Program-made: the position numbers and the translations under genes
Assembly: GCF_032854445.1 (NCBI RefSeq)
Contig: NC_088295.1
Coordinates: forward strand, 32,082,510-32,146,509
Reading direction: 5' to 3'
DNA length: 64,000 nt
Source of the DNA: Liolophura sinensis
Taxonomy: Eukaryota
Shown here: one piece after another, positions 10,273 to 39,971 of the stretch
How the letters are laid out: the number at the start of each line of letters is the position of its first letter
Numbering within the stretch: position 1 is the stretch's first letter
Notes under the pieces: model-generated
Told to the model about the DNA's origin: nothing
Databases searched by the model: none
What the model saw: the letters and a program-made list of their open reading frames with translations, nothing else

Positions 10273-10437
10273 ATGAAGATTGCAGCAGAAGAAATGATAC
10301 CCGAGATGCTCTCGGTATTTGAAGGTCTCAAAGTCGTATTTGAGCTAGACTCTAATGTTCGATATAAACAGAAGACTGCTCTCAAAGAACTCGTTATTAA
10401 AAATGGAGGTGTTGTGTCTTACATTCTTACCAAACAG
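10273..10437 (+). CDS. PARP4: PARP4-like exon 1 (start codon; BRCT N-terminal part)
   Basis: MKIAAEEMIPEMLSVFEGLKVVFELDSNVRYKQKTALKELVIKNGGVVSYILTKQ aligns to human PARP4 N-terminus (..IFANCIFCLKVKYLPQQQKKKLQTDIKENGGKFSFSLNPQ). Donor cag|gtgagg. An acceptor (tttcag) lies 11 nt upstream of the ATG, implying an upstream 5'UTR exon. Confidence 0.85.
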
Positions 10438-10796
10438 GTGAGGTGTATGAGAGTCATTAACTTGTCCAATATCATGCTGTTAATGTGTATATTACAGTAT
10501 GTGTTGTTTCTAATCATGAAAGTGGCTAACACATGTTCACATTTAAGCATTTAAGGTAGTGATGACCATAATTTAACTGGTCAAGAAAGGATACCAGTTA
10601 TATTATTATATTATTGAATACACGTCAACCTCATTGTTCAAGGTTGTGATCGAACCAGCACTTAACCATCTAAGCCAGCAAGGCCACAGTAATGCTTCAA
10701 AAATGTTCTAAAGTATATGTGTGGGGCATTAAAGGGTGAAAAACACTACTTTAAAAAAAGAAAGTATGAATGTGTATGATGTTGTTGTTGTTGACA

Positions 10797-10987
10797 GTGC
10801 TCTTACCTGGTTGTCAGCAGTAAGGAGAAGGCCCAGTCTTACAGGTGTCAGACAGCCAGCAAGTATGGCGTCCCCTGTTGTCCTCGTGAACTTCCTGCAG
10901 GACTCTGTCAAAGCTGGAAAACTTCAAGACTTTCGAAAATATCTTGTCATAAAAGAGGACTTAAAGATTTCAGACGATAAAATCAAA
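10797..10987 (+). CDS. PARP4: PARP4-like exon 2 (BRCT), with an apparent +1 frameshift at the cccc run 10871-10874
   Basis: Frame A: CSYLVVSSKEKAQSYRCQTASKYGVP. After removing one C: VVLVNFLQDSVKAGKLQDFRKYLVIKEDLKISDDKIKG. Together these align to human CTHIILDNADVLSQYQLNSIQKNHVHIANPDFIWKSIREKRLLDVKNY. Acceptor ttgacag|, donor aaag|gtttga. Confidence 0.75.
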
Positions 10988-11670
10988 GGTTTGAATATAA
11001 ACCTTATGTCATCTTAGATTTGCAACATACAGTCAGTGTTCTGAAATTATCGCAGTTTTAGTCCTGTTTTAGTTGTAGTAAGGATTACTGTATGTGTAAA
11101 GAGGTAGGGCTTCAGAATCATCACTGATTGGCTGCTGTACAAGATAAGTTTAAATAGTTACTGTTGATTTATTTGATGTGCACTCAAGTGTGACCAATGT
11201 TACACAGTTTAACTGAGTCAACAGAACTCAGCCAGTCCCTGTCAGTCTTGTATCCTTCTAAAGAGAAATATATGTGATGACAGTTTAATCAGAACAGTTT
11301 TAAATATGTTTTTTCACCTTCTTCAACTTACATGCAGTAAAGTTTAATATCTCATATTCACCTTTTACACACACTGTCATTGTTGACACCCAGTGAGTGT
11401 TATGAAAACAATGCCCATACTTTGGTGACATGAACTATCATGCCACAAGAAGACATACTATATATACACACACCGAGTGACACCTCCTCATCACATAGTA
11501 TTGAAAAATTGTTAAGTATGATGTTAAACTCAAGTGTACTTGTATACATATTTTGTTATGTCAATGGAATATGCCAGTGTCTCCATATCAAGTATGACTT
11601 ACCATTCTGCAGACATACGTAAACATACATGTTAGATGATGTAGTACATTGCTCCAGTTCATTTTTTCAG

Positions 11671-11813
11671 AGTCTCCAAAAAGCCTGAGGATTCAGCGCC
11701 ATCAGGAAGAAGACATTTGTGATATCAGTTCCAAAGTGTGGGATCAGAATGACAAGAATAAACCACAGTTTGAGGAAGAATCGTTTGAATTGGCAAAGTG
11801 TGCAGTGTTTCAG
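11671..11813 (+). CDS. PARP4: PARP4-like exon 3
   Basis: (E)SPKSLRIQRHQEEDICDISSKVWDQNDKNKPQFEEESFELAKCAVFQ, compare human ...PQDFEVAKYNTLEKV. tttttcag| acceptor and cag|gtattg donor; phase consistent with exon 2. Confidence 0.7.
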
Positions 11814-12063
11814 GTATTGTGTTACAGTACCTATAAACACACATGTTTTTGTTATTAAAATTATTATTATTGAAAGTATCAGTGTTGGAAAATAAGCCCT
11901 AGCTAATTTACACTACATTTTCGACCTATTTGATTTAAAATGTTTGATTCATGTATCTGTCTTGTCTTACCTGATAAGCTGTAACATACTTGTAATGTTT
12001 GAAGATGGCATTTTGAATTTTAGCTTTATAAATTTCCTGCTCCTTTTATTTTCTCCTCAAAAG

Positions 12064-12189
12064 GCCAAGCAGAACATAATATATGTGTTTGAAATCCATG
12101 CATCCAAAAAGCAAGAGGTGATAAGAGGTCAAGAGGTGACAAAGATTGATCATCCAAGATTCAGGCTGTTTTCTCAACAGTATTCACAG
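12064..12189 (+). CDS. PARP4: PARP4-like exon 4
   Basis: AKQNIIYVFEIHASKKQEVIRGQEVTKIDHPRFRLFSQQYSQ; ctcctcaaaag| acceptor, cacag|gtactt donor; phase 0-0. Confidence 0.6.
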
Positions 12190-12554
12190 GTACTTAATCT
12201 TTAAGTTTTCTTTGGAGTGCTTTGTATCGTATTTGGATGCACAAGAAGCAGACCTGAACAGACATTTATTGCACCTACACATACAACATGCCTGTGAAAC
12301 AGATGTGGTATTTTTGAGGTTTCAGTGAAAAAACAATGTGAACCAAAAATACATGTATTGTGGACTTTATCAAACCTTTATCAAACATTCAGACTACATG
12401 GACATATATGTATACTGTAGTCAATGTTTATTTGTACAAGACTACAACCAAATCCAAAATAACCAAGTTCTCACCCTCTTCTCCAGATCATGGGCATTTG
12501 TATGATTACCATGTTGCTTACCGTGCAGTCTCTTACTGTAGAGTTCCATTTATT

Positions 12555-14135
12555 ACTATGTAGGCTAACTTAAACGATAATGTATTACTACCACATCCAA
12601 TGGTTATCCTGCCATTTCCAGTTAGGGCTAAGGTAAACCATAATGCATTACTACCACATCCAATGGTATCCTGCCATTTCCAGTTAGGGCTAATGTAAAC
12701 AATAATGCATTACTACCACATCCAATGGTTATCCTGCCATTTCCAGTTAGGGCTAATGTAAACTATAATGAATTACTACCACATCCAAAGGTTATCCTGC
12801 CATTTCCAGTTAGGGCTAATGTAAACCATAATGCATTACTACCACATCCAATGGTTATTCAGCCATTTCCAGTTAGGGCTAATGTAAACCATAATGCATT
12901 ACTACCACATCCAGTGGTTATTCAGCCATTTCCAGTTAGGGCTAATGTAAACAATAATGCATTACTACCACATCCAATGGTTATCCTGCCATTTCCAGTT
13001 AGGGCTAATGCAAACCATAATGCATTACTATCACATCCAGTGGTTATCCTGCCATTTCCAGTTAGGGCTAATGTAAACAATAATGCATAACTACCACATC
13101 CAAAGGTTATCCTGCCATTTCCAGTTAGGGCTAATGTAAACAATAATGCATTACTACCAGATCCAAAGGTTATCCTGCCATTTCCAGTTAGGGCTAATGC
13201 AAACCATAATGCATTACTACCACATCCAAAGGTTATCCTGCCATTTCCAGTTAGGGCTAATGTAAACCATAATGCATTACTACCACATCCAATGGTTATC
13301 CTGCCATTTCCAGTTAGGGCTAATGTAAACAATAATGCATTACTACCACATCCAATGGTTATCCTGCCATTTCCAGTTAGGGCTAATGTAAACCATAATG
13401 CGTTACTACCACATCCAAAGGTTATCCTGCCATTTCCAGTTAGGGCTAATGTAAACCATAATGCGTTACTACCACATCCAAAGGTTATTCAGCCATTTCC
13501 AGTTAGGGCTAATGTAAACCATAATGCGTTACTACCACATCCAAAGGTTATTCAGCCATTTCCAGTTAGGGCTAATGTAATCTATAATGAATTACTACCA
13601 CATCCAATGGTTATCCTGCCATTTCCAGTTTCGGTTAATGTAAACCATAATGCATTACTACCACATCCAATGGTTATCCTGCCATTTCCAGTTAGGGCTA
13701 ATGTAAACCATGATGCATTACTACCACATCCAAAGGTTATCCTGCCATTTCCAGTTAGGGCTAATGTAAACCATAATGCATTACTACCACATCCAATGGT
13801 TATCCTGCCATTTCCAGTTAGGGCTAATGTAAACAATAATGCATTACTACCACATCCAATGGTTATCCTGCCATTTCCAGTTAGGGCTAATGTAAACCAT
13901 AATGCATTACTACCACATCCAATGGTTATCCTGCCATTTCCAGTTAGGGCTATTGTAAACCATAATGCATTACTACCACATCCAAAGGTTATCCTGCCAT
14001 TTCCAGTTAGGGCTAATGTAAACCATAATGCATTACTACCACATCCAGTGGTTATCCTGCCATTTTCAGTTAGGGCCAATGTAAACCATGATGCAGTACT
14101 ACCACATCCAATGGTTATCATGCCATTCAAATGAC
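12555..14135. repeat. Minisatellite, 60-bp unit x ~26, in PARP4 intron 4
   Basis: 'attactaccacatccaatggttatcctgccatttccagttagggctaatgtaaaccataatgc' reiterated. The 60-bp periodicity creates spurious long ORFs on both strands. Confidence 0.95.
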
Positions 14136-14260
14136 AAAATCTTTTAATTTGATGAGATGGTATAAACTGCTGCAAACTACACTTTCGGGTATATGAATTT
14201 TTTCATATACATATATAATAAAGAGAAATAAATCACGACAGGTTTTACCTTCATTTGCAG

Positions 14261-14425
14261 GGAAAGACACAGAATATTAAATACGTATTCAGTAATTCTG
14301 CTGATAAAATTGTGGAAGCATACACACAGCAGTGTGAAGAAGTGCAGAAGAAATATAATGCTGAGAGAGTACAGAACATTCAGCAGGTTCCCCTGGAAGC
14401 ATTGGGAACACGTCAGTTTAGAAAG
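14261..14425 (+). CDS. PARP4: PARP4-like exon 5
   Basis: GKTQNIKYVFSNSADKIVEAYTQQCEEVQKKYNAERVQNIQQVPLEALGTRQFRK, compare human RRQFAIKKTSEDASEYFENYIEELKKQGF...; tttgcag| and aag|gtagga. Confidence 0.7.
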
Positions 14426-15012: not shown

Positions 15013-15150
15013 GTGTATCGAGAGAAAATGGTCACTGAAACCATCCCTGATCCTAGGGTGCTCACCCTTGTTAAGCAGGTGTGGGAGGAGGCTGTTGGAC
15101 ATCTGGGGCAAATCCTCACTGTACCTGTGGACAAGATTAAAATGGAACAG
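15013..15150 (+). CDS. PARP4: PARP4-like exon 6
   Basis: VYREKMVTETIPDPRVLTLVKQVWEEAVGHLGQILTVPVDKIKMEQ, compare human EVMNSSTLSQEVSDLVEMIWAEALGHLEHMLLKPVNRISLNDVSKAEG. Confidence 0.85.
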
Positions 15151-15344
15151 GTACATGCCTGAGTTAATTTGAAATGCTCTTTTTATACACCGTTATTTAC
15201 AGGTTTCAGTTTGGTTTGTCTGTTTGTCCATCTCTCCCTGTGAACAATGCATTTGCGGTCTGTTTGCTTCAGATCAGCTTATCCTTTTTAGTAGGCAGGC
15301 TTTGTGTAGGCAAGTGTGAATTAGGACTGAAAATAGGATTTTAT

Positions 15345-15775
15345 AATGCCTGGTCATACCGTTGCATGTACATGTAGTGATTTTGTATTGCCTGGTCATA
15401 CCGTTGCATGTACATGTAGTGATTTTTGTATTGCCTGGTCATACCGTTGCATGTACATGTAGTGATTTTGTATTGCCTGGTCATACCGTTGCATGTACAT
15501 GTAGTGATTTTTGTATTGCCTGGTCATACCGTTGCATGTACATGTAGTGATTTTTGTATTGCCTGGTCATACCGTTGCATGTACATGTAGTGATTTTGTA
15601 TTGCCTGGTCATACCGTTGCATGTACATGTAGTGATTTTGTATTGCCTGGTCATACCGTTGCATGTACATGTAGTGATTTTGTATTGCCTGGTCATACCG
15701 TTGCATGTACATGTAGTGATTTTTGTATTGCCTGGTCATACCGTTGCATGTACATGTAGTGATTTTGTATTTGGG
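15345..15775. repeat. Minisatellite, 42-43-bp unit x ~10, in intron 6
   Basis: 'ttgcctggtcataccgttgcatgtacatgtagtgattttgta' reiterated. Confidence 0.95.
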
Positions 15776-16615: not shown

Positions 16616-16786
16616 GTGGAGAAGGCAGAAGGAGTGTTATTACAGATAAAGGAGGCACTTGAAGGTCAATCCAGTGCTAAGGATTTGGAGAACCTCAGTT
16701 CTCAATTTTATGAAGCCTTGGCGCATGTGAATCCAGTAACTATTACAAACAAGCTTATCCTGTGCAGGAAGAAAGACCTTTGTCAG
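16616..16786 (+). CDS. PARP4: PARP4-like exon 7
   Basis: VEKAEGVLLQIKEALEGQSSAKDLENLSSQFYEALAHVNPVTITNKLILCRKKDLCQ, compare human VSKAEGILLLVKAALKNGETAEQLQKMMTEFYRLIPHK...LLAKKADLCQ. Confidence 0.85.
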
Positions 16787-17081: not shown

Positions 17082-17242
17082 TTAATCCGGGACATGACAG
17101 CAGTAGGGGAGACAACCCACTGGCAGAGACATCCCTCAGAAGTAGCCACGTACAAAGCTCTACGTTGTTCTCTGGAATACATGAAGACAACTGATTTAGA
17201 CTTTGAAACTGTCTCCAGTTTAGTTAAGGACAGTCTCACAAG
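17082..17242 (+). CDS. PARP4: PARP4-like exon 8
   Basis: LIRDMTAVGETTHWQRHPSEVATYKALRCSLEYMKTTDLDFETVSSLVKDSLT, compare human LIRDMVNVCETNLSKPNPPSLAKYRALRCKIEHVEQNTEEF; ends phase 2. Confidence 0.85.
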
Positions 17243-18343: not shown

Positions 18344-18599
18344 ATTAGATTGGTGTTTTCCGCCCTACTCGAGGATATTTCACGTATACGATGGCGGCCA
18401 GCATTATGGTGGGAGGAAACCAGGCAGAACCCGGAGGAAACGCACAGTCATCTGTAGATTGCTGGCACACCTTCCCACTTACAAGCAAAGAGGAAACCAG
18501 CATGAGCTGGACTTGAACTCACAGCAACCATGTTGCTGAGAGGCAAGCTGCCCTTTAACCTGCCCTAACGTGCTAACCAACTGAGCTACGTAGGCCCCC
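18344..18599 (-). mobile_element. tRNA-derived SINE, full-length copy in intron 8
   Basis: Reverse complement begins 'gggggcctacgtagctcagttggttagcacgttagggcagg' (A-box tagctcagttgg) and contains B-box 'gagttcaagtcc', core 'cctcccaccataatgctggccgccatcgtatacgtgaaatatcctcgagtagg' and tail 'aacaccaatctaataaataaa'. Confidence 0.8.
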
Positions 18600-18856: not shown

Positions 18857-18994
18857 ACAAGACAGAATGGAAATCGTAAATATCTTCACAGTCCAGCGAC
18901 CAATGGAAGAAGAGATGTTCAGACATGACCTATCCCCCAAGAAACTGCTCTTTCATGCCTCCAGCTTCTCACGTTTTCTTGGAATACTCTCAAG
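18857..18994 (+). CDS. PARP4: PARP4-like exon 9 (PARP catalytic domain, His of H-Y-E)
   Basis: (R)QDRMEIVNIFTVQRPMEEEMFRHDLSPKKLLFHASSFSRFLGILS, compare human VDVLQIFRVGRVNETTEFLSKLGNVRPLLHGSPVQNIVGILCRG. Confidence 0.85.
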
Positions 18995-19736: not shown

Positions 19737-19835
19737 AGGTCTTCTGTTGCCCAAGCTTGTGGTGAATGAGTATGGGGGAAGTAGGTCGGACCCTGGTAAC
19801 CTGGGTTATGGCATTTACTTTGCTGAATCAGCCAG
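19737..19835 (+). CDS. PARP4: PARP4-like exon 10 (catalytic Tyr)
   Basis: (R)GLLLPKLVVNEYGGSRSDPGNLGYGIYFAESA, compare human GLLLPKVVEDRGVQRTDVGNLGSGIYFSDSLS. Confidence 0.9.
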
Positions 19836-20266: not shown

Positions 20267-20450
20267 CGTGAGCTGTGCATACTCTGGAGTGAGTCAGTCT
20301 CGTGGGACTCGCTTCATGCTGATAACAGAGGTGGCCCTGGGAGAGAGTTGCAAGTTCTACACTCAGCAACCTGATCTCACTGCGCCACCCCCGGGCTATG
20401 ATAGTGTACATGGGGTAGCTCACTCACCTCAACAACCCTCCTTCTTCAAG
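20267..20450 (+). CDS. PARP4: PARP4-like exon 11
   Basis: VSCAYSGVSQSRGTRFMLITEVALGESCKFYTQQPDLTAPPPGYDSVHGVAHSPQQPSFFK, compare human YSHPGETDGTRLLLICDVALGKCMDLHEKDFSLTEAPPGYDSVHGVSQ. Confidence 0.9.
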
Positions 20451-20714: not shown

Positions 20715-20874
20715 AATGATGAATTTGCCATATATCAGAGTAACCAACAGAAGCTGAGGTACCTGATCGAGTTCACTTTACCTGGGGACAAGCCACTGCC
20801 TGCACCACTACAGCTCACCAGAAGTGTGAAATCACCAGACTTTGAGCACCTGGATTTCTCTGACATCATGGCAG
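20715..20874 (+). CDS. PARP4: PARP4-like exon 12 (catalytic Glu)
   Basis: NDEFAIYQSNQQKLRYLIEFTLPGDKPLPAPLQLTRSVKSPDFEHLDFSDIMA, compare human DDEFVVYKTNQVKMKYIIKFSMPGDQ. Confidence 0.85.
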
Positions 20875-21926: not shown

Positions 21927-22057
21927 GATGTGACACGTGTCCAGAGTAAGGAAGACCCATTGAGTAAAGTGACCAGTGGACTAGTGAGTTCTGGGGATTC
22001 GTCTGTCCCCCTCAAATCGGTCCATATCAGGGCACGTCTCCTCGACATGGCTGCTCA
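21927..22057 (+). CDS. PARP4: PARP4-like exon 13
   Basis: (D)VTRVQSKEDPLSKVTSGLVSSGDSSVPLKSVHIRARLLDMAAQ, compare human GNLVPLEDVHIKGRIIDTVAQ. Confidence 0.8.
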
Positions 22058-22084
22058 GGTACATGTAATGCTGATTTGTCTCAT

Positions 22085-22790
22085 CATGTTTGTACAATGT
22101 AGGATTGTGGTGCTGTAAAGGAATTTGGTTTGCTCAGTTTATACTGATCAGGCTAGTATGATTGTGGCGCTGTAAAGGAATTTGGTTTGCTCAGTTTATA
22201 CCAATCAGGCTAGTGGGATTGTGGCACTGTAAAGGAATTTGGTTTGCTCAGTTTATACTGATCAGGCTAGTGGGATTGTGGTGCTGTAAAGGAATTTGGT
22301 TTGCTCAGTTTATACCGATCAGGCTACTGGGATTGTGGCGCTGTAAAGGAATTTGGTTTGCTCAGTTTATACTGATCAGGCTAGTAGGGTTGTGGCGCTG
22401 TAAAGGAATTTGGTTTGCTCAGTTTATACCGATCAGGCTAGTAGGGTTGTGGCGCTGTAAAGGAATTTGGTTTGCTCAGTTTATACTGATCAGGCTAGTG
22501 GGATTGTGGCGCTGTAAAGGAATTTGGTTTGCTCAGTTTATACCGATCAGGCTAGTGGGGTTGTGGCACTGTAAAGGAATTTGGTTTGCTCAGTTTATAC
22601 TGATCAGGCTAGTATGATTGTGGCGCTGTAAAGGAATTTGGTTTGCTCAGTTTATACTGATCAGGCTAGTAGGGTTGTGGCACTGTAAAGGAATTTGGTT
22701 TGCTCAGTTTATACCGATCAGGCTAGTATGATTGTGGCGCTGTAAAGGAATTTGGTTTGCTCAGTTTATACCAATCAGGCTAGGATTGTG
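22085..22790. repeat. Minisatellite, 58-bp unit x ~12, in intron 13
   Basis: 'ggattgtggcgctgtaaaggaatttggtttgctcagtttataccgatcaggctagtgg' reiterated. Confidence 0.95.
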
Positions 22791-23124: not shown

Positions 23125-23349
23125 GTGGTTGTTCTACAAGAGTACAGTAATGACCTGAACACAGCCATCGAGGCCAAGTATGTGTTTCCACTGGATGACC
23201 TGGCTGCTGTCTGCGGGTTTGAGGCCTTCATTAACGGTAAACACATTGTGGGGGAGGTGAAGGAGAAGGCTACAGCCCACAGGGAGTATAAGGAGGCTGT
23301 TAGTGCTGGTCATGGGGCATACTTAATGGACCAGGATGAAGAGACACCT
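23125..23349 (+). CDS. PARP4: PARP4-like exon 14 (VIT domain start)
   Basis: VVVLQEYSNDLNTAIEAKYVFPLDDLAAVCGFEAFINGKHIVGEVKEKATAHREYKEAVSAGHGAYLMDQDEETP, compare human VIVFQTYTNKSHVPIEAKYIFPLDDKAAVCGFEAFINGKHIVGEIKEKEEAQQEYLEAVTQGHGAYLMSQDAP. Confidence 0.95.
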
Positions 23350-23994: not shown

Positions 23995-24159
23995 GATGTG
24001 TTCACAGTTAGTGTTGGGAATCTGCCCCCAAAGGCCAGTGTTCTTATCAAGATCACCTATGTGGCAGAGCTGCTGACAGAGGAGGGACTGATCAGCTTCA
24101 GTCTTCCTGGTAGTGTGGCGCCATGGAAACGAGACTCCGCCCTTGACCAGACTACACAG
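23995..24159 (+). CDS. PARP4: PARP4-like exon 15 (VIT)
   Basis: DVFTVSVGNLPPKASVLIKITYVAELLTEEGLISFSLPGSVAPWKRDSALDQTTQ, compare human DVFTVSVGNLPPKAKVLIKITYITELSILGTVGVFFMPATVAPWQQDKAL. Confidence 0.95.
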
Positions 24160-24776: not shown

Positions 24777-24899
24777 ACAGCTGTGGATACACTGAAGGTG
24801 GACTCTAACATTGGTCAGAACACCAGTCTCCAGATCTCCGTGAACATGCCCTTTGACATCAGGTTTATCGAGTCACCCACGCACAGGCTGAAGAAAAAG
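24777..24899 (+). CDS. PARP4: PARP4-like exon 16 (VIT)
   Basis: TAVDTLKVDSNIGQNTSLQISVNMPFDIRFIESPTHRLKKK, compare human DTVEKICIKEIGTKQSFSLTMSIEMPYVIEFIFSDTHELKQK. Confidence 0.85.
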
Positions 24900-25079: not shown

Positions 25080-25253
25080 TATGTAAGCTATGATTTTTGG
25101 TCTGATTTACTACAGACTACAGCCTCCAGAGCAGTACTGGAGTTAGAGAAGAACCAAACACTTGAGGGTGGTTTTCAGCTCCTGATTGGCCTGTCAGAGA
25201 TTCATGTACCACGGATGTGGGTTGAGGAACACCCGGACAATGAGGACAGTCAG
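25080..25253 (+). CDS. PARP4: PARP4-like exon 17 (VIT end)
   Basis: YVSYDFWSDLLQTTASRAVLELEKNQTLEGGFQLLIGLSEIHVPRMWVEEHPDNEDSQ, compare human ...SSGFSLHIGLSAAYLPRMWVEKHPEKESE. The acceptor atacag| at 25079 was chosen because the stronger tttacag| at 25056 gives a stop in phase 0. Confidence 0.75.
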
Positions 25254-25282
25254 GTAATCATAGTTGTCTCCCCCTTCCTGTG

Positions 25283-25758: not shown

Positions 25759-25945
25759 GCATGCATGCTAACATTTTACCCAGAGATTGATAGTGGAAAG
25801 TCAGGAGCATCCAAGACTGTCTTCCTTCTTGACATGTCTAACTCCATGAAAGAGAAAGCTGCTAAAGACGCTGTGACTCTGCTTGTCATGTTGCTCAACC
25901 AGCTCAACAAAAATACTCACTTCAATGTGATTGTCTTTGGAACTG
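25759..25945 (+). CDS. PARP4: PARP4-like exon 18 (vWA domain, MIDAS D.S.S)
   Basis: ACMLTFYPEIDSGKSGASKTVFLLDMSNSMKEKAAKDAVTLLVMLLNQLNKNTHFNVIVFGT(G), compare human ACMLVFQPDLDVDLPDLASESEVIICLDCSSSMEGVTFLQAKQIALHALSLVGEKQKVNIIQFGTG. Confidence 0.9.
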
Positions 25946-26836: not shown

Positions 26837-26910
26837 ACTCAGAAGAGGTGTTCAGTGACTATCAACCAGTTACCAAAACCAGCATACAGGCTGTACTCAA
26901 ATTTCTCAAG
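26837..26910 (+). CDS. PARP4: PARP4-like exon 19 (vWA)
   Basis: (D)SEEVFSDYQPVTKTSIQAVLKFLK, compare human YKELFSYPKHITSNTMAAEFIMSA; phase closes the carry from exon 18. Confidence 0.7.
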
Positions 26911-27329: not shown

Positions 27330-27520
27330 GAGAAGGTAACCAAAACTATGGGAGGAACAAACTTATATCACCCCCTCCATACCCTCCTGCTTCTTCAACC
27401 AACAAGTACCCCCCTCAATGTCCTCTTGATATCAGATGGCCATATCAACAATGAGGAGGTGATATTGTCTGATCTGATGATTAACTCTACTTCCCTTAGG
27501 CTCTTCACTGTCGGAGTCAG
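27330..27520 (+). CDS. PARP4: PARP4-like exon 20 (vWA)
   Basis: EKVTKTMGGTNLYHPLHTLLLLQPTSTPLNVLLISDGHINNEEVILSDLMINSTSLRLFTVGV, compare human TPTMGNTDFWKTLRYLSLLYPARGSRNILLVSDGHLQDESLTLQLVKRSRPHTRLFACGIG. Confidence 0.9.
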
Positions 27521-27976: not shown

Positions 27977-28076
27977 TGATTCAGCTAACAGGCACAGATT
28001 AAGGTCTCTGGCAAGAATTGGAAGTGGCTGCTTTGAATTCTTCGACAGCAAATTGAAGTCTAAGTGGGGTGCAAAG
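27977..28076 (+). CDS. PARP4: PARP4-like exon 21 (vWA end)
   Basis: (S)DSANRHRLRSLARIGSGCFEFFDSKLKSKWGAK, compare human STANRHVLRILSQCGAGVFEYFNAKSKHSWRK. Confidence 0.9.
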
Positions 28077-28214: not shown

Positions 28215-28385
28215 GTGAAGTCTGTATTGTACAGAGTGTCACAGCCCAGCCTCACCTCAGTGCATGTGGAGTGGCACCAGTATGATAACAACCCCCAACC
28301 TCCCATCCAGGCTCCCCGACAAATCATGTCTCTCTTCACGGGAACACGGCAGGTTGTCTACGGATTTGTCTCAAATTGCCAAATG
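28215..28385 (+). CDS. PARP4: PARP4-like exon 22
   Basis: VKSVLYRVSQPSLTSVHVEWHQYDNNPQPPIQAPRQIMSLFTGTRQVVYGFVSNCQM, compare human QIEDQMTRLCSPSCHSVSVKWQQLNPDAPEALQAPAQVPSLFRNDRLLVYGFIPHCTQ. Confidence 0.85.
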
Positions 28386-29224: not shown

Positions 29225-29305
29225 GCCACTTTGAAGGCTGTGGTGAACGGGGCAGAGATATCCACAGTGGTGTCATCCTCTCAACTCAGTAACACCAAAG
29301 GCACT
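29225..29305 (+). CDS. PARP4: PARP4-like exon 23
   Basis: ATLKAVVNGAEISTVVSSSQLSNTKGT, compare human ATLCALIQEKEFCTMVSTTELQKTTGT; donor act|gtgagt. Confidence 0.8.
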
Positions 29306-30135
29306 GTGAGTATCTGTATACTGTGAATAGTTAAATCAAAGGCACTGAGATCATCTGTATATTGTGAATAGTTAAATCAAAGGCACTGAGATCATCTGTA
29401 TATTGTGAATAGTTAAATCAAAGGCACTGAGATCATCTGTATATTGTGAATAGTTAAATTAAAGGCACTGAGAGCATCTTTACATTGTTAATAGTTAAAT
29501 TAAAGGCACTGTGAGCATCTGTACATTGTCAAAAGTTACACCAGAGGCACTGTGAGTATCTGTATACTGTGACTAGTAACACCAACGGCACTGAGTACAT
29601 CTGTATACTGTGAATAGTTAAATCAAAGGCACTGAGATCATCTGTATACTGTGAATAGCTAGACCAAAGGCACTGAGATCATCTTTTGTGAATAGTTAAA
29701 TTAAAGGCACTGAGAGCATCTTTACATTGTTAATAGTTAAATTAAAGGCACTGCGAGCATCTGTACATTTTCAAAAGTTACACCAGAGGCACTGTGAGTA
29801 TCTGTATACTGTGACTAGTAATCCTAAAGGCGCTGTTAGTATCTGTATACTGTGACTAGTAATCCTAAAGGCGCTGTTAGTATCTGTATACTGTGAGTAG
29901 CTACACCAATGGCACTGTTGGTATCTGTATACTGTGAAGAGCAACACCAAAGGCACTGTGAGTATCTTTATACTGTGAATAGTTGCACCAAAGGCACTGT
30001 TAGTATCTGTACACTGTGAAGAGCAACACCAAAGGCACTGTTGGTATCTATATACTGTGACTAGTAACACCAAAGGCACTGTTAGTATCTGTATACTGTG
30101 AAGAGCAACACCAAAGGCACTGTGAGTATCTGTAT
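29291..30135. repeat. Minisatellite, 41-bp unit x ~20, seeded from the exon-23 3' end plus 5' splice site
   Basis: The unit 'aaaggcactg(t)gag(t/a)atc(a)tctgtata(t/c)tgtgaatagttaaatc' starts inside exon 23. Several copies retain 'ggcactgtgagtatctg', which is the exon end plus GTGAGT donor. Confidence 0.9.
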
Positions 30136-30139
30136 TATG

Positions 30140-33100
30140 TAAATACATGCACAGTGTGGTAAGATTTACATTGTACATGTATGGCACTGTGCAGTAGATG
30201 TAGGTACATGAACAGTAAGGCAGGTATGGTACTGTGCATTAGATGTAGGTACATGAACAGTAAGGCAGGTATGGCACTGTGCAGTAGATGTAGGTACATG
30301 TACAGTAAGGCAGGTATGGTACTGTGCATTAGATGTAGGTACATGAACAGTAAGGCAGGTATGGCACTGTGTTAGAAGTATGTACATGTACAGTCAGGTA
30401 TGGCACTGTGCGTTAGATGTAGATACATGTACAGTCAGGTATGGCACTGTGCATTAGATGTAGATACATGTACAGTCAGGTATGGCACTGTGCGTTAGAT
30501 GTAGGTACATGAACAGTAAGGCAGGTATGGCACTGTGCAGTAGATGTAGGTACATGTACAGTCAGGTATGGCACTGTGCATTAGATGTAGGTACATGAAC
30601 AGTCAGGTATGGCACTGTGTTAGATGTAGGTACATATACAGTCAGGTATGGCACTGTGTTAGATGTAGGTACATGTACAGTCAGGTATGGCACTGTGCAT
30701 TAGATGTAGGTACATGAACAGTAAGGCAGGTATGGCACTGTGCAGTAGATGTAGGTACATGAACAGTAAGGCAGGTATGGCACTGTGCAGTAGATGTAGG
30801 TACATGTACAGTAAGGCAGGTATGGTACTGTGCATTAGATGTAGGTACATGAACAGTAAGGCAGGTATGGCACTGTGTTAGAAGTATGTACATGTACAGT
30901 CAGGTATGGCACTGTGCGTTAGATGTAGATACATGTACAGTCAGGTATGGCACTGTGCATTAGATGTAGGTACATGAACAGTAAGGCAGGTATGGCACTG
31001 TGTTAGAAGTATGTACATGTACAGTCAGGTATGGCACTGTGCGTTAGATGTAGATACATGTACAGTCAGGTATGGCACTGTGCATTAGATGTAGGTACAT
31101 GTACAGTCAGGTATTGCACTGTGCATTAGATGTAGGTACATGTACAGTCAGGTATGGCACTGTGTTAGATGTAGGTACATGTACAGTCAGGTATGGCACT
31201 GTGTTAGATGTAGGTACATGTACAGTCAGGTATGGCACTGTGTTAGATGTAGGTACATGTACAGTCAGGTATGGCACTGTGCATTGGATGTAGATACATG
31301 TACAGTCAGGTATGGCACTGTGCATAAGATGTAGGTACATGTACAGTCAGGTATGGCACTGTGCATTAGATGTAGGTACATGAACAGTAAGGCAGGTATG
31401 GCACTGTGCAGTAGATGTAGGTACATGAACAGTAAGGCAGGTATGGCACTGTGCATTAGATGTAGGTACATGTACAGTCAGGTATGGCACTGTGCATAAG
31501 ATGTAGGTACATGTACAGTCAGGTATGGCACTGTGCATTAGATGTAGGTACATGAACAGTAAGGCAGGTATGGTACTGTGCAGTAGATGTAGGTACATGT
31601 ACAGTAAGGCAGGTATGGTACTGTGCAGTAGATGTAGGTACATGAACAGTAAGGCAGGTATGGCACTGTGTTAGAAGTATGTACATGTACAGTCAGGTAT
31701 GGTACTGTGCATTAGATGTAGGTACATGAACAGTCAGGTATGGCACTGTGCATTAGATGTAGGTACATATACAGTCAGGTATGGCACTGTGTTAGAAGTA
31801 GGTACATGTACAGTCAGGTATGGCACTGTGCGTTAGATGTAGATACATGTACAGTCAGGTATGGCACTGTGCATTAGATGTAGGTACATGAACAGTAAGG
31901 CAGGTATGGCACTGTGTTAGAAGTATGTACATGTACAGTCAGGTATGGCACTGTGCGTTAGATGTAGATACATGTACAGTCAGGTATGGTACTGTGCATT
32001 AGATGTAGGTACATGAACAGTAAGGCAGGTATGTCACTGTGCAGTAGATGTAGGTACATGTACAGTAAGGCAGGTATGGCACTGTGCAGTAGATGTAGGT
32101 ACATGTACAGTCAGGTATGGCACTGTGTTAGAAGTAGGTACATGTACAGTCAGGTATGGCACTGTGCGTTAGATGTAGGTACATGAACAGTAAGGCAGGT
32201 ATGGCACTGTGCAGTAGATGTAGGTACATATACAGTCAGGTATGGCACTGTGTTAGAAGTAGGTACATGTACAGTCAGGTATGGCACTGTGCGTTAGATG
32301 TAGATACATGTACAGTCAGGTATGGCACTGTGCGTTAGATGTAGGTACATGAACAGTAAGGCAGGTATGGCACTGTGTTAGAAGTATGTACATGTACAGT
32401 CAGGTATGGCACTGTGCGTTAGATGTAGATACATGTACAGTCAGGTATGGCACTGTGCATTAGATGTAGATACATGTACAGTCAGGTATGGCACTGTGCG
32501 TTAGATGTAGGTACATGAACAGTAAGGCAGGTATGGCACTGTGCAGTAGATGTAGGTACATGTACAGTCAGGTATGGCACTGTGCATTAGATGTAGGTAC
32601 ATGAACAGTCAGGTATGGCACTGTGTTAGATGTAGGTACATATACAGTCAGGTATGGCACTGTGTTAGATGTAGGTACATGTACAGTCAGGTATGGCACT
32701 GTGCATTAGATGTAGGTACATGAACAGTAAGGCAGGTATGGCACTGTGCAGTAGATGTAGGTACATGAACAGTAAGGCAGGTATGGCACTGTGCAGTAGA
32801 TGTAGGTACATGTACAGTAAGGCAGGTATGGTACTGTGCATTAGATGTAGGTACATGAACAGTAAGGCAGGTATGGCACTGTGTTAGAAGTATGTACATG
32901 TACAGTCAGGTATGGCACTGTGCGTTAGATGTAGATACATGTACAGTCAGGTATGGCACTGTGCAGTAGATGTAGGTACATGTACAGTCAGGTATGGCAC
33001 TGTGTTAGAAGTAGGTACATGTACAGTCAGGTATGGCACTGTGCGTTAGATGTAGGTACATGAACAGTAAGGCAGGTATGGCACTGTGCAGTAGATGTAG

Positions 33101-34850
33101 GTACATATACAGTCAGGTATGGCACTGTGTTAGAAGTAGGTACATGTACAGTCAGGTATGGCACTGTGCGTTAGATGTAGATACATGTACAGTCAGGTAT
33201 GGCACTGTGCATTAGATGTAGGTACATGAACAGTAAGGCAGGTATGGCACTGTGCAGTAGATGTAGGTACATGAACAGTAAGGCAGGTATGGTACTGTGC
33301 ATTAGATGTAGGTACATGTACAGTCAGGTATGGCACTGTGCATTAGATGTAGGTACATATACAGTCAGGTATGGCACTGTGTTAGAAGTAGGTACATGTA
33401 CAGTCAGGTATGGCACTGTGCGTTAGATGTAGATACATGTACAGTCAGGTATGGCACTGTGCATTAGATGTAGGTACATGAACAGTAAGGCAGGTATGGC
33501 ACTGTGCAGTAGATGTAGATACATGTACAGTCAGGTATGGCACTGTGCATTAGATGTAGGTACATGTACAGTCAGGTATGGCACTGTGCATTAGATGTAG
33601 GTACATGTACAGTCAGGTATGGCACTGTGCATTAGATGTAGGTACATGTACAGTCAGGTATGGCACTGTGCATTAGATGTAGGTACATGTACAGTCAGGT
33701 ATGGCCTGTGTTAGAAGTATGTACATGTACAGTCAGGTATGGCACTGTGCGTTAGATGTAGATACATGTACAGTCAGGTATGGCACTGTGCATTAGATGT
33801 AGGTACATGTACAGTCAGGTATTGCACTGTGCATTAGATGTAGGTACATGTACAGTCAGGTATGGCTTTGTGTTAGATGTAGGCACATGTACAGTCAGGT
33901 ATGGCACTGTGTTAGATGTAGGTACATATACAGTCAGGTATGGCACTGTGTTAGATGTAGGCACATGTACAGTCAGGTATGGCACTGTGTTAGATGTAGG
34001 TACATGTACAGTCAGGTATGGCACTGTGTTAGATGTAGGTACATGTACAGTCAGGTATGGCACTGTGTTAGATGTAGGTACATGTACAGTCAGGTATGGC
34101 ACTGTGCATTAGATGTAGGTACATGTACAGTCAGGTATGGCACTGTGCATTAGATGTAGGTACATGTACAGTCAGGTATGGCCTGTGTTAGAAGTATGTA
34201 CATGTACAGTCAGGTATGGCACTGTGCGTTAGATGTAGATACATGTACAGTCAGGTATGGCACTGTGCGTTAGATGTAGGTACATGAACAGTAAGGCAGG
34301 TATGGCACTGTGCGTTAGATGTAGATACATGTACAGTCAGGTATGGCACTGTGCATTAGATGTAGGTACATGTACAGTCAGGTATTGCACTGTGCATTAG
34401 ATGTAGGTACATGTACAGTCAGGTATGGCTTTGTGTTAGATGTAGGTACATGTACAGTCAGGTATGGCACTGTGTTAGATGTAGGTACATATACAGTCAG
34501 GTATGGCACTGTGTTAGATGTAGGCACATGTACAGTCAGGTATGGCACTGTGTTAGATGTAGGTACATGTACAGTCAGGTATGGCACTGTGTTAGATGTA
34601 GGTACATATACAGTCAGGTATGGCACTGTGTTAGATGTAGGTACATGTACAGTCAGGTATGGCACTGTGCATTAGATGTAGGTACATGAACAGTAAGGCA
34701 GGTATGGCACTGTGCATTAGATGTAGGTACATGTACAGTCAGGTATGGCACTGTGCATTAGATTTAGGTACATGTACAGTCAGGTATGGCACTGTGCATT
34801 AGATGTAGATACATGTACAGTCAGGTATTGTATAAAGTTCCACTCAGTTA
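30140..34850. repeat. Large minisatellite, 41-bp unit (48-bp variant) x >100, 4.7 kb, in intron 23
   Basis: 'ggtatggcactgtgcattagatgtaggtacatgtacagtca', with a variant inserting 'gaacagtaaggca'. Higher-order blocks are visible; the core 'ggcactgtg' is shared with the exon-23-derived array. Confidence 0.95.
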
Positions 34851-35195: not shown

Positions 35196-35276
35196 ATTGT
35201 TCACAAATTGACAGCCCGTGGTATTATTCGAGATTGGGAAGATGGCGTCTTGTCATTGGACAGAAACAAGCATGAG
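35196..35276 (+). CDS. PARP4: PARP4-like exon 24
   Basis: IVHKLTARGIIRDWEDGVLSLDRNKHE, compare human MIHKLAARALIRDYEDGILHENETSHE. Confidence 0.85.
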
Positions 35277-36250: not shown

Positions 36251-36346
36251 TGTAATGAGGATGTCTGATGTGTTCGGCATGACAATTCAGTGGTGGCAGT
36301 ATATGTACATACACCTTATGACTGCCCTCTTTGTCTTGTGTTGTAG

Positions 36347-37775
36347 GCTGATAGACTGGAGCTGAAGGAGTACATCATCAGGCTGAGTAAGGAGTACTCT
36401 ATTGTCACCCAGCTCACTGCCTTCTTTGTCTTGTGTTGTAGGCTTATAGACTGGAGCTGAAGGAGTACATCATCAGGCGGAGTAAGGAGTACTCTATTGT
36501 CACCCAGCTCACTACCTTCTTTCTCTTGTGTTGTAGGCTGATAGAGTGGAGCTGAAGGAGTACATCATCGGGCTGAGTAAGGAGTACTCTATTGTCACCC
36601 AGCTCACTACCTTCTTTGTCTTGTGTTGTAGGCTGATAGACTGGAGCTGAAGGAGTACATCATGAGGCTGAGTAAGGAGTACTCTATTGTCACCCAGCTC
36701 ACTACCTTCTTTATCTTGTGTTGTAGGCTTATAGACTGGAGCTGAAGTACATCATCAGGCGGAGTAAGGAGTACTCTGTTGTCACCCAGCTCACTACCTT
36801 CTTTGTCTTGTGTTGTAGGCTGATAGACTGGAGCTGAAAGAGTACATCATCAGGCTGAGTAAGGAGTACTCTGTTGTCACCCAGCTCACTACCTTCTTTG
36901 TCTTGTGTTGTAGGCTGATAGACTGGAGCTGAAAGAGTACATCATCAGGCTGAGTAAGGAGTACTCTATTGTCACCCAGCTCAATACCTTCTTTGTCTTG
37001 TGTTGTAGGCTGATAGACTGGAGCTGAAGGAGTACATCATCAGGCGGAGTAAGGAGTACTCTGTTGTCACCCAGTTCACTACCTTCTTTATCTTGTGTTG
37101 TAGGCTGATAGACTGGAGCTGAAGGAGTACATCATCAGGCTGAGTAAGGAGTACTCTATTGTCACCCAGCTCACTACCTTCTTTGTCTTGTGTTGTAGGC
37201 TGATAGAGTGGAGCTGAAGGAGTACATCATCAGGCTGAGTAAGGAGTACTCTATTGTCACCCAGCTCACTACCTTCTTTATCTTGTGTTGTAGGCTGATA
37301 GACTGGAGCTGAAGGAGTACATTATCGGGCTGAGTAAGGAGTACTCTATTGTCACCCAGCTCACTACCTTCTTTGTCTTGTGTTGTAGGCTGATAGACTG
37401 GAGCTGAAGGAGTACATCATCAGGCTGAGTAAGGAGTACTCTGTTGTCACCCAGCTCACTACCTTCTTTGTCTTGTGTTGTAGGCTGATAGACTGGAGCT
37501 GAAGGAGTACATTATCGGGCTGAGTAAGGAGTACTCTATTGTCACCCAGCTCACTACCTTCTTTGTCTTGTGTTGTAGGCTGATAGACTGGAGCTGAAGG
37601 AGTACATTATCGGGCTGAGTAAGGAGTACTCTATTGTCACCCAGCTCACTACCTTCTTTGTCTTGTGTTGTAGGCTTATAGACTGGAGCTGAAGGAGTAC
37701 ATCATCGGGCTGAGTAAGGAGTACTCTATTGTCACCCAGCTCACCAGCTTTGTGGCTGTGGAGGAGAGAGCAAAG
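36347..37775 (+). repeat. 95-bp tandem array x15, each unit = polypyrimidine tract + AG acceptor + first ~70 nt of exon 25. Only the last copy carries the authentic exon 3' end and donor.
   Basis: Unit 'gctgatagactggagctgaaggagtacatcatcaggctgagtaaggagtactctattgtcacccagctcactaccttctttgtcttgtgttgtag'. The final copy continues '...cagctcaccagctttgtggctgtggaggagagagcaaag|gtagga'. Confidence 0.9.
37674..37775 (+). CDS. PARP4: PARP4-like exon 25 (the one complete copy)
   Basis: AYRLELKEYIIGLSKEYSIVTQLTSFVAVEERAK, compare human QTLKSLIIKLSKENSLITQFTSFVAVEKRDENE; acceptor ttgtag|, donor aag|gtagga. Confidence 0.75.
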
Positions 37776-38091
37776 GTAGGAACACACCTGTGACTCTGCT
37801 GGGATTTTTCCCGAAATTTCATGTCTTTGGCATGATACTTGAGTTACGGCATGGGTTCCCCCTGCCACAAGAAACACAGTATATGTACACACACGTAATG
37901 ACTCCTCATTGCCATATGACTGAAAAATTGTTAAGTATGACGTTAAACCCCAAGCATACATACATATGTACATATATCCATTCATTCATTCATTCATTCA
38001 TTAATTCATTTGTATGATGATCACTTTGTCATGAATTCAGGATGATATTTTCTTTCATGTAATAATATTTGGCCTTTCTCCTTCACTGTAG

Positions 38092-38190
38092 GATGAGGCC
38101 AAAAGTGTGACGTCAGATGCTCAAATGGAGGAGCTTATTCAGGCAGAAGATGTGGATGATCTGTCCTACATAGGGTGGGAAAGATCTCCG
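38092..38190 (+). CDS. PARP4: PARP4-like exon 26
   Basis: DEAKSVTSDAQMEELIQAEDVDDLSYIGWERSP, compare human SPFPDIPKVSELIAKEDVDFLPYMSWQGEPQ. Confidence 0.75.
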
Positions 38191-38329
38191 GTAATTACTG
38201 TATCTGAGCAGTATCAAATGCACATAGCTAATACACATTACACATTACAGAACCAATGTGAACATCATATATATGTAAAATATCTGATGTGTAGCACACA
38301 GGTTCAGCCTCATGGTGGAAGGGGCAGTG

Positions 38330-38880
38330 CAAGTCAGGTGTAGTTCAGTTGTATGGGGAATTAGGGGTGGGGGTGTCAATGTAATTCAGGTGTTGTTAAG
38401 TCATATGGGGGATTGGTGGAGGGGGGGAGGCAATGTAAGTGAGGTGTAGTTCAGTTGTATGGGGGATTAGGGGTGGAGGTGTCAATGTAAGTGAGGTGTT
38501 GTTAAGTTGTATTGGGGATTGGTGGAAGGGGCAGTGCAAGTCAGGTGTAGTTCAGTTGTATGGGGAATTAGGGGTGGGGGTGTCAATGTAATTCAGGTGT
38601 TGTTAAGTCATATGGGGGATTGCTGGAGGGTGGGAGGCAATGTAAGTGAGGTGTAGTTCAGTTGTATTGGTGATTGGAGGGTCAGTGTACGTCAGGTTTA
38701 GTTAAGTTATTTGGGGGATTGGTGGGGAAGGGGACAATATAAGTCAGGTGTACTTCAGTTGTATGGTTGATTAGGGGTGGGGGGGGGGGGGCTCAGTTTA
38801 AGTCAGGTGTAGTTATGTTGTATAGTGGATTGAGGAGGGGAGAGCAATGTCAGTTAGGTGTAGTTAAGTTATATATGTAG
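38330..38880. repeat. G-rich minisatellite, ~60-bp unit, in intron 26
   Basis: 'caggtgtagttcagttgtatggggaattaggggtgggggtgtcaatgtaa(t/g)t' reiterated; G-runs gggggg, gggggggggggg. Confidence 0.9.
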
Positions 38881-39174
38881 GTTGGAGAAGGGTATAATGG
38901 CCTGTATCACACCCACGGCATGTTAAGGTGGCCACCCACAAGTTGTACATTACCACAAGCTGCATTATACAGGGTGTCTACCACCCTGCGACTCAGCTTG
39001 TTTCAAGGTAAAGCTCAGACTGCAGTGAAGGTGTTCATTTTGCTTGATTCTGAGGGTACTGTTGATCTTAAAAACGTCTTGAGATGCTGTTCTACAGTGA
39101 AATAGTGTAGATTCAACACTTTCCAGTCGTCAAGACAAACAGTGGGCAGGTTCAAACCCAGCCTTAGTCAAAGA

Positions 39175-39675
39175 ATATGTAGATTCCAGGTTAGGCAGGG
39201 TTGTTTGTCAGTTACCTGTACATGTGCCAGATTAGGCATGGTTGTTTGTTAGGTTGCAGGGGAGGCAGGGTTGTTTGTCAGGTACATGTACCAGGTGAGG
39301 TATAGTTGTGTGTCACGTACCAGGTGAGGTGTGGTGGTTTGTCAGGCTCATGTACCAGGTGAGGTATAGTTGTGTGTCATGTACCAGGTGAGGTGTGGTG
39401 GTTTGTCAGGCTCATGTACCGGGTGAGGTATAGTTGTGTGTCAAGTACCAGGTGAGGTGTGGTGGTTTGTCAGGTACATGTACCAGGTGAGGTATAGTTG
39501 TGTGTCAAGTACCAGGTGAGGTGTGGTGGTTTGTCAGGTACATGCACCAGGTGAGGTATAGTTGTGTGTCAAGTACCAGGTGAGGTGTGGTGGTTTGTCA
39601 GGCTCATGTACCAGGTGAGGTATAGTTGTGTGTCAAGTACCAGGTGAGGTGTGGTGGTTTGTCAGGCTCATGTAC
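39175..39675. repeat. Minisatellite, ~62-bp unit x ~8
   Basis: 'caggtgaggtatagttgtgtgtcaagtaccaggtgaggtgtggtggtttgtcaggctcatgtac' reiterated. Confidence 0.9.
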
Positions 39676-39910
39676 AAGTCTGATGATTTCAGTCAGCTTC
39701 AAACCAGTGTTCCTCCAGCCACAAAGCCTAACCACATTCAGATAAGTAAAATACTTATGAGTCAAAGTCTAAAGAATAATATTGGTTAGACATACTGTAT
39801 GTATATTTGTTCAGGCATGTTTCTAGGGTGACAGGTTTCAGTTTTGTCAATAAAAGTGATTTTCTTTGAACTTCGTTTATTAATGAGAGTGTGTTCTATT
39901 ATGTTTGCAG

Positions 39911-39971
39911 CTGGCTTTAGATGTGGCCGAAGACCAAGATATTTTGTCCGTGACTCAGGAGGCACTTTTTG
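39911..39971 (+). CDS. PARP4: Candidate PARP4-like exon 27
   Basis: LALDVAEDQDILSVTQEALF; tgtttgcag| acceptor, tttg|gtaaga donor, phase-consistent with exon 26. Similarity to the low-complexity human region is weak. Confidence 0.35.

Follow-up and report, generated by a model that had tools for sequence, protein, structure and literature searches.

A PARP4-like locus of Liolophura sinensis with array-rich introns, two of whose tandem arrays duplicate exon boundaries

Introduction

Tandem repeats that run across an exon–intron boundary, and so multiply a splice site, are rare. In intron 7 of human F7, a 37-bp variable number of tandem repeats (VNTR) array has a first unit that covers the donor of exon 7; splicing takes place at the most upstream site, and the pseudo-sites are silent (PMC1557585). 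In the Adh3 and globin genes of amphioxus, such "mirage" minisatellites were reported at both 5′ and 3′ boundaries, where they are unstable in length and leave splicing normal as judged by reverse-transcription PCR; the amphioxus draft assembly misassembled one of them (PMC3087553). Mirages bear on the choice of the spliceosome among identical sites and on intron gain by duplication. Here we describe further cases of this already named phenomenon (mirages, F7 VNTR), a donor and an acceptor case both in one PARP4-like gene, on the + strand of a 64,000-nt stretch of Liolophura sinensis DNA (hereafter the window; positions are counted from its first letter).

PARP4 is docked in the vault by its MINT domain (residues 1562-1724 of the human protein), and the PARP4-binding residues of MVP are conserved in vertebrates only (PMC12280208). 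A 14-3-3 domain appended to PARP4-like proteins was described earlier by Perina et al. 2014 (PMC4245714) in lancelet, sea urchin, Capsaspora and dictyostelids. Nothing found in the window is new in kind: PARP4 orthologues that bear a 14-3-3-like tail have been described already, and so have minisatellites within introns and mirages. We consider it probable that the locus is a PARP4 orthologue in which six introns have been inflated by independent local duplications, that the gene continues past the window, and that a frameshift in its second exon is an error or a rare allele.

A PARP4 orthologue with 28 mapped exons

Exons were located by tblastn with a human PARP4 sequence and 120 database fragments as guides; the human PARP4, 14-3-3, actin and ubiquitin sequences of the local BLAST searches served solely as guides, and the conclusions are based on PDB chains, Pfam models and database proteins. 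Splice junctions were chosen by phase, freedom from stops, alignment score and site quality, with four regions read directly. The window has a eukaryotic composition (~38-44% G+C). After correction of one base in exon 2, 26 GT-AG exons at 10273-38190 (+) form one open frame, and the full model comprises 28 GT-AG exons at 10273-40811 (+), which encode 1283 residues without a stop; all 54 mapped splice sites are canonical.

In a comparison with all PDB chains, residues 31-1236 of the model aligned in one stretch with residues 20-1215 of human PARP4 (chain 11jf_P, E=6e-245), far ahead of the next-best family, PARP3 (8e-22). The colinearity with human PARP4 to about residue 1200 that an earlier note on this DNA had proposed, and its assignment of the locus to PARP4, are both upheld by this alignment; its number of exons is likewise correct in essence. 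The catalytic module by itself gave PARP4 at 1e-72 and PARP3 at 6e-24. A profile search of 1.8 billion representatives returned full-length PARP4 proteins, and end-to-end alignments were obtained with PARP4 of Lottia, Branchiostoma, Saccostrea, Magallana, Potamilus, Mytilus, Biomphalaria, Antedon and Nematostella (residues 13-1234 of the model for Branchiostoma, oyster and Lottia). The nearest named homologues, from molluscs, amphioxus, a crinoid and cnidarians, are all PARP4 and each ~50-52% identical over the conserved core; no database protein exceeded ~52% identity to the model. PARP4 orthology of the locus is strongly supported.

The domains recognized by Pfam are BRCT at residues 15-103 (BRCT_2, 2e-8, found only after one C at 10872-10875 is deleted), PARP_reg at 300-375 (9e-8), PARP at 406-580 (5e-29), VIT at 642-754 (4e-37) and VWA at 895-1046 (VWA_3, 6e-22), i.e., VIT followed by vWA on the C-terminal side of the catalytic domain. 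The four motifs quoted in the earlier note all lie on the + strand where it had placed them: LLFHAS at 18945-18962, GIYFAESA at 19810-19833, NDEFAIYQ at 20715-20738 and the VIT motif FPLDDLAAVCGFEAFINGKHIVGE at 23185-23256. The last of these was said to be almost identical to its human counterpart, and 23 of its 24 residues are indeed identical with mammalian PARP4. The H-Y-E triad is intact, as LLFHAS, GIYFAES and NDEFAIY align with PLLHGS, GIYFSDS and DDEFVVY of the solved human PARP4.

All exons are on the + strand. The BRCT domain begins in exon 1 (10273..10437, residues 1-55), whose ATG stands at 10273, and is completed in the frameshifted exon 2 (10798..10988, residues 56-119). A second ATG at 10306 corresponds to the start of most homologues, and an acceptor-like tttcag directly 5′ of exon 1 may point to a non-coding 5′ exon upstream. 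Exon 3 (11671..11813, residues 119-166) is followed by exon 4 (12064..12189, residues 167-208) with the WGR-like region and by exon 5 (14261..14425, residues 209-263). The helical or PARP_reg part starts in exon 6 (15013..15150, residues 264-309), occupies exon 7 (16616..16786, residues 310-366) and passes into the catalytic domain in exon 8 (17082..17242, residues 367-420). The His, Tyr and Glu of the triad are encoded by exon 9 (18857..18994, residues 420-466), exon 10 (19737..19835, residues 466-499) and exon 12 (20715..20874, residues 561-614), respectively, with exon 11 (20267..20450, residues 499-560) supplying catalytic domain in between. Exon 13 (21928..22058, residues 614-657) carries a linker and the start of VIT, exon 14 (23125..23349, residues 658-732) the VIT core with FPLDDLAAVCGFEAFINGKHIVGE, and exon 15 (23995..24159, residues 733-787) the rest of VIT. 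Exons 16 (24777..24899, residues 788-828) and 17 (25116..25253, residues 829-874) precede the vWA domain, which starts in exon 18 (25759..25945, residues 875-937) and extends through exon 19 (26837..26910, residues 937-961; missed by BLAST and recovered by direct reading), exon 20 (27330..27520, residues 962-1025) and exon 21 (27977..28076, residues 1025-1058). Exons 22 (28215..28385, residues 1059-1115), 23 (29225..29305, residues 1116-1142, donor CACT|GTGAGT), 24 (35196..35276, residues 1143-1169) and 25 (37674..37775, residues 1170-1203) lead to exon 26 (38092..38190, residues 1204-1236, donor TCTCCG|GTAATT), which bears the conserved motif EDVDxLSYxGWE. Exons 27 (39911..39971, residues 1237-1257) and 28 (40730..40811, residues 1257-1284), the latter newly found here, encode the first and the second half of a putative 14-3-3-like remnant. 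A checked 28-exon PARP4 model is thereby available to annotators.

Three other PARP4 loci, in the ENA assemblies ERZ25066852, ERZ25066847 and ERZ25066855 (L001, L002 and L004), have VIT and vWA in one 1.5-kb open frame and are almost intronless. Their VIT domains are 64-68% identical to that of the window gene, and downstream there is an actin-like piece in the same orientation, an arrangement shared with PARP4 models from Nematostella, Hydra, Mytilus and Magallana.

Two arrays that duplicate exon boundaries

The arrays that span a boundary were read base by base. The donor array (29290..30135, +), with 21 copies of a 41-bp unit, starts inside exon 23: its first unit consists of the last ~16 nt of that exon and the 5′ splice site (CACT|GTGAGT), and 20 more copies follow. 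Copies 2-5 have GA in place of GT, and five later copies keep GTGAG, at +205, +246, +488, +652 and +816 nt. The acceptor array (36321..37744, +), with 15 copies of a 95-bp unit, ends in exon 25, and each unit comprises a polypyrimidine tract, the AG and the first 69 nt of the exon (ADRLELKEYIIRLSKEYSIVTQLT), so that these 69 nt of exon 25 are the last unit of the array. Only copy 15 continues into SFVAVEER and a donor, and any upstream acceptor copy, when read onward, runs into a stop (..TTFFVLCCRLIDWS*), 95 not being a multiple of 3. Both arrays arose by duplication of an exon boundary, namely the donor of exon 23 in one case and the acceptor of exon 25 together with 69 nt of exon in the other.

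We infer that the duplicated splice sites stay silent and that the mRNA is normal. The authentic donor of exon 23 would be chosen as the most upstream site, and the authentic acceptor of exon 25 as the sole copy with a donor within exon-definition distance (102 nt). Arrays that carry real splice signals can nevertheless mislead gene predictors, which may settle on any of 15 acceptors or six strong donors. It is very unlikely, in our estimate, that mirage-type duplication, so far described in cephalochordates, acts in another lineage in a form focused on a single extended transcription unit (10.3 kb to >63 kb, 43% array). If true, this would point to transcription- or splicing-coupled seeding of tandem duplications at or near splice sites, and the 20 pseudo-donors and 14 pseudo-acceptors would offer a natural test bed for splice-site choice and intron gain.

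One further array, of seven 64-bp units in intron 26 (39220..39675), contains two donor-like CCAG|GTGAGG motifs per unit, i.e., near-consensus 5′ splice-site motifs though no exon adjoins. It may be an old mirage, or the motifs may be due to chance.

The tandem arrays and their origin

With the Tandem Repeats Finder (TRF) at a score threshold of 50, 23 separate arrays were called, which make up 36.6% of the window. Within 10273-39971, arrays occupy 10,651 bp (35.9%) and lie in introns 4, 6, 13, 23, 24 and 26, with a (CATT)8 tract in intron 25. The earlier note had placed arrays in these six introns and downstream, as is now confirmed, and had put intronic minisatellite at about 40% of the locus; the intronic placement stands, and the figure comes down to 35.9%. 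Its count of at least 12 arrays with units of 35-123 bp does not hold within 10273-39971, where there are eight distinct minisatellites and one (CATT)8, and does hold when the arrays beyond 39971 are included (at least 12, with 35-bp and ~126-bp units). The arrays are far beyond chance, as had been claimed, with TRF scores of 400-6700 against the threshold of 50.

In the gene, intron 4 holds a 63-bp x 24.9 array (12563..14127, 94% matches) and intron 6 a 42-bp x 10.3 array (15337..15771, 97% matches). In intron 13, a 57-bp x 12 array (22099..22783) starts 41 nt past the exon 13 donor. Most of the rest of intron 23, beyond the donor array, is a 4.65-kb 41-bp x 112 array (30179..34828), and in intron 26 the 64-bp array is preceded by a G-rich array with periods of 52/106/207 bp (38313..38874). 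Downstream of the mapped exons, a 35-bp array of ~30 copies (41367..42587) is split by an insertion resembling a short interspersed nuclear element (SINE) at 42187-42325. There follows a block (42973..45214) made of a 126-bp array (42973-43875), a unique stretch and a 55-bp array (44429-45214), of which a second, expanded copy lies at 47003..52916 (55-bp x 85, interrupted at 50399-50995 by a 126-bp array). A 109-bp x 28 array of 3.4 kb (57892..61277), preceded by SINE-like fragments, lies further on. With array bases removed, the 25 introns between exons 1 and 26 measure 138-1614 bp.

The units of 63, 42, 57, 41, 41, 95, 52 and 64 bp share no significant similarity with one another, and units are shared between arrays only in the duplicated 126/55-bp block. 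Kinship of the two 41-bp arrays of intron 23 was considered and rejected, since the best rotation gave 17/41 identities, which equals the shuffled mean. The reading that we prefer is that six introns were inflated by independent local tandem duplications of unrelated units, which would have arisen by replication slippage or unequal exchange and would be tolerated because they are spliced out.

Delivery of the arrays by mobile elements, as satellites borne by miniature inverted-repeat transposable elements (MITEs), Helitrons or SINEs, rather than their making in place, is unlikely. This alternative draws on the SINE-like copies that split the 35-bp array (42187-42325) and adjoin the 109-bp array (57772-57858), and on downstream transposon fragments, with a recombinase of Crypton type at 45785-46060 and, at 54633-54983, a MADF domain. 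However, two arrays are built from the gene's own exon boundaries and are therefore local in origin; the 35-bp unit is present on both sides of the SINE at 42187-42325, and the array therefore predates that insertion, which entered a pre-existing repeat; the units are unlike each other and unlike the dispersed repeats; and in flanks within 250 bp of 11 arrays, no inverted or direct terminal repeats were found above shuffled controls.

The earlier note had suggested a locus-specific tendency to generate minisatellites, which the single window neither supports nor refutes. A true hotspot at the PARP4 transcription unit, where some factor tied to the locus (for instance instability linked to transcription or splicing) would seed tandem duplications more than elsewhere in the genome, is similarly improbable. 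Over the 10 kb upstream of the gene, array cover is 5%, as against 35% in 10273-40811, rising to 43% from 10273 to the end of a downstream 429-codon open frame if this frame belongs to the gene; on the coding strand, the arrays have an excess of G over C (skew of +0.21 and +0.16, vs. +0.07 and +0.02 in non-array DNA); and two of them start exactly at splice sites. In the comparison with neighbouring DNA that the earlier note had proposed, however, the gene is above the upstream 10 kb and below the 24 kb downstream of 39971, where cover reaches 51%. The upstream stretch is just one small non-genic region, the downstream 23 kb are only putatively part of the gene, and the GC/AT skew of non-array DNA is too weak to mark a transcription unit. 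Genomes rich in intronic minisatellites and mirages are moreover known (PMC3087553), and the array load is not a property of PARP4 as such, because the PARP4 loci of Solemya velum and of one other invertebrate assembly are only ~4% and ~2% array.

Some observations concern the repeats themselves. The 63-bp array contains a frame (12644-14131, +) that is open for 148 + 347 codons and encodes a 21-residue repeat, LPHPMVILPFPVRANVNHNAL; a coding role was rejected, since homology passes without a gap from exon 4 to exon 5, on either side of the array, and the frame could fool a gene predictor. The unique pieces 43829-44204 and 47673-48040 of the duplicated block are 91.5% identical, and in both there is an open frame rich in serine and acidic residues (GAGDGDDKGNSSSSSEDEDYAPIPDIYSEGD), possibly a linker exon of PARP4. 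The near-palindrome ACATGTA / TACATGTA occurs at 1.5/kb in non-array DNA, ~7x the expectation from composition, and also within the 42-, 41-, 64-, 35- and 109-bp units (5/15 array units).

The 3′ end and the C-terminal part

Homology to human PARP4 ends at the EDVDxLSYxGWE motif of exon 26. Exon 27, whose donor is the end coordinate of the earlier note, had been offered there as a weakly supported candidate, and is now supported: it has good splice sites and joins in phase to exon 28, and the peptide obtained by splicing, LALDVAEDQDILSVTQEALF|DAEVMLDSLSEDEHKQSSVPVQQLRDV, has a match that runs over the junction to the 14-3-3-like module found after vWA in nine PARP4 homologues (E 1e-4 to 0.04, small database), including Branchiostoma (1e-4), dictyostelids, a euglenozoan and several other eukaryotes. 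The Pfam 14-3-3 model had no match in this 47-residue tail, and the module is therefore called degenerate in the window gene as far as its sequence goes. Modules of 14-3-3, actin (residues 1-70) and ubiquitin type are frequent after vWA in non-vertebrate PARP4 and were described before (PMC4245714). In a different frame, exon 27 can be read as actin-like (AGFRCGRRPRYF, E=2); this reading was rejected as out of phase with exons 26 and 28, and so was an apparent exon YFGEECCLIARDNF at ~40236-40290, which has no in-phase donor to exon 28; exons 27 and 28 join directly. A 38-nt segment at 41155-41192 (+), with a very good acceptor (tcttcttgcag|) and a donor (ATGG|GTAAGT), is in phase with exon 28 and is a candidate exon 29 without homology.

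The earlier note had spoken of a vault PARP with all hallmark domains. This is not sustained, as a search of all frames of the window found no MINT or MVP-interaction domain, and the exon that completes BRCT carries a frameshift. A MINT profile built from 25 PARP4 C-termini (mollusc, chiton and nemertean included) found none in the six-frame open reading frames of the window, with a best E=0.14 over 14 residues. By tblastn, 21 C-terminal regions of homologues gave no match in the window beyond 40806, and neither the actin, ubiquitin and 14-3-3 modules of homologues nor the homologue regions that follow 14-3-3 gave any beyond 40811. The vault function implied by the name "vault PARP" would follow from orthology, and the label is so far unearned, MINT not having been found in the window.

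With a lemur C-terminus as the query, a MINT-like domain was located at the extreme C-terminus of PARP4 from Potamilus (unionid), Liolophura (chiton), Tubulanus (nemertean) and Styela (tunicate) (P0142, P0242, P0173 and P0185, respectively), with E values of 4e-9 to 6e-4 at residues ~1900-2350. These MINT-like domains of invertebrates contrast with the vertebrate-only conservation of the PARP4-binding residues of MVP (PMC12280208). From their position, ~700-1100 further codons are therefore expected, and the gene probably continues past exon 28 and the end of the window through a long disordered linker. A proline-rich, 429-codon open frame with PPPPPPSRF/SKFG repeats (61667-62953, +) is a candidate exon of this linker, an assignment that we favour somewhat. 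It includes a 36-bp tandem array (62009-62590), which is coding and yields the PPPPPPS(R/K)(F/S)G repeats. In local BLAST, the likeness of the frame to PARP4 linkers of Mytilus and Tubulanus, which are PPPP-rich, is purely compositional; it has no homologue in the databases and no Pfam domain.

In Solemya velum, a gene of opposite strand beside PARP4 fragments (L003, 1-9477, −) carries the Pfam PARP4_MVP-ID domain (PF26156). This gene could be another copy of PARP4, perhaps an inverted one, or its model could have been split.

The exon 2 frameshift and the integrity of the gene

An extra C in the CCCC run of exon 2 (10872-10875, +) causes a change of frame after KYGVP and before VVLVNFLQ: exon 1 shares its frame with the 5′ half of exon 2 (…ASKYGVP), and the 3′ half (VVLVNFLQDSV…) is in the next, in phase with exon 3. 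When one C is removed, the BRCT domain aligns unbroken with 12 PARP4 homologues. No alternative splice in the exon 2 region restores the frame, and rescue by a 38-nt mini-intron was rejected, such an intron being of the wrong length class (38 mod 3 = 2) and too short. Because the 3.85 kb of coding sequence show no lesion other than this frameshift, we regard a rare allele or an error of assembly as more likely than long-standing pseudogenisation. Several independent disabling changes, by which a unitary pseudogene is recognized, were looked for throughout the model, and just this one frameshift was found, with no stops after correction and all sites GT-AG. The run is flagged for annotation as a probable homopolymer error or a null allele.

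A recent inactivation of PARP4, which would make the locus a pseudogene or null allele disabled by the frameshift and perhaps also by decoy splice sites, in which repeats accumulate without selection, is quite unlikely. The frameshift at 10872-10875 with a stop ~100 nt later would fit such a history, as would the 14 decoy acceptors 5′ of exon 25, the five strong decoy donors after exon 23 and the lack of a C-terminal MINT domain in the 23 kb downstream. However, the lesion is single, and all 54 mapped sites are canonical; neither the catalytic triad nor the VIT motif, which is highly conserved, is damaged; a miscount in a 4-base homopolymer is plausible as an assembly error; the mirage arrays of amphioxus leave splicing undisturbed; and MINT is expected far downstream in an invertebrate PARP4. 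Extremely unlikely is the further alternative of misassembly, in which the arrays themselves or their lengths would be artefacts: long arrays whose copies are 96-98% identical are difficult for assemblers, one amphioxus mirage was misassembled and the homopolymer frameshift hints at imperfect polishing, but 13 different arrays with internal variants and unique flanks are unlikely to have been invented, and the risk touches their copy numbers rather than their existence.

Several points weigh against our preferred reading of an orthologue with locally inflated introns that continues past the window. As assembled, translation ends at ~10975 and the protein is truncated. Neither MINT nor any homologous exon follows 40811 in the window. 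The 14 acceptor copies upstream of the authentic one would compete under first-AG scanning, and normal splicing of intron 24 is an assumption. The array lengths can be misassembled. All the proposed junctions are predictions from sequence. Since the last third of the gene, at its 3′ end, is unmapped, how far the transcription unit reaches can only be guessed.

Neighbouring genes and dispersed repeats

At the start of the window, an open frame with a match to rhodopsin-family G-protein-coupled receptors (16-270, −; Pfam 7tm_1, 1.3e-7) runs off the edge and is the upstream neighbour on the opposite strand. Open frames at 5638-6653 (+) resemble by eye the C-terminal tail of ORF2, the second open reading frame of retrotransposons without long terminal repeats, and had no Pfam match. 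The SINE-like family has copies at 2235-2434, 18337-18528(−), 21489-21582(−), 28590-28787, 42187-42325(−), 57479-57649 and 57772-57858, which are 77-84% identical to one another; three copies are within PARP4 introns. The Crypton-like tyrosine recombinase fragment (45785-46060, +; Phage_integrase 1e-11, DUF3504 1e-4) is placed between the two 126/55-bp blocks, and the open frame with the MADF DNA-binding domain (54633-54983, +; 2.6e-5) could be transposon-derived or a separate small gene. An Rfam scan of the whole window gave no matches.

Comparison with known systems

Once exon 2 is corrected by one base, the window gene has the same domain order as human PARP4 (PDB 11jf/9bw6/9bw7, 8sx1), i.e., BRCT, WGR-like, helical, ART with H-Y-E, VIT and vWA. 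It differs from the human gene in that its BRCT exon is frameshifted in the assembly, a 14-3-3-like remnant stands after vWA, and the MINT domain of human residues 1562-1724 was not found in the window. As in the PARP4 proteins with 14-3-3 modules described before (PMC4245714), the putative 14-3-3-like segment comes directly after the vWA/EDVD region, and its best match is the module of Branchiostoma. That module is 95 residues long (E=7e-31), whereas the one found here has ~47 residues, which correspond to the last two helices.

The boundary arrays are closest to the mirages of amphioxus (PMC3087553), whose Branchiostoma PARP4 is ~46-52% identical to the window gene. In both, exon–intron boundaries are repeated in tandem at 5′ and 3′ ends, many units keep their AG or GT, and the 41- and 95-bp units fall within the 10-160 bp range of the amphioxus cases. 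The globin mirages have 2-6 copies, whereas the present arrays have 21 and 15. In the F7 VNTR, as in the exon 23 donor array, the first unit spans the exon–intron boundary. In contrast to F7, the four copies beside the real donor of exon 23 have no GT, intact pseudo-donors begin 205 nt downstream, and the next intron carries a mirror-image array built from an acceptor.

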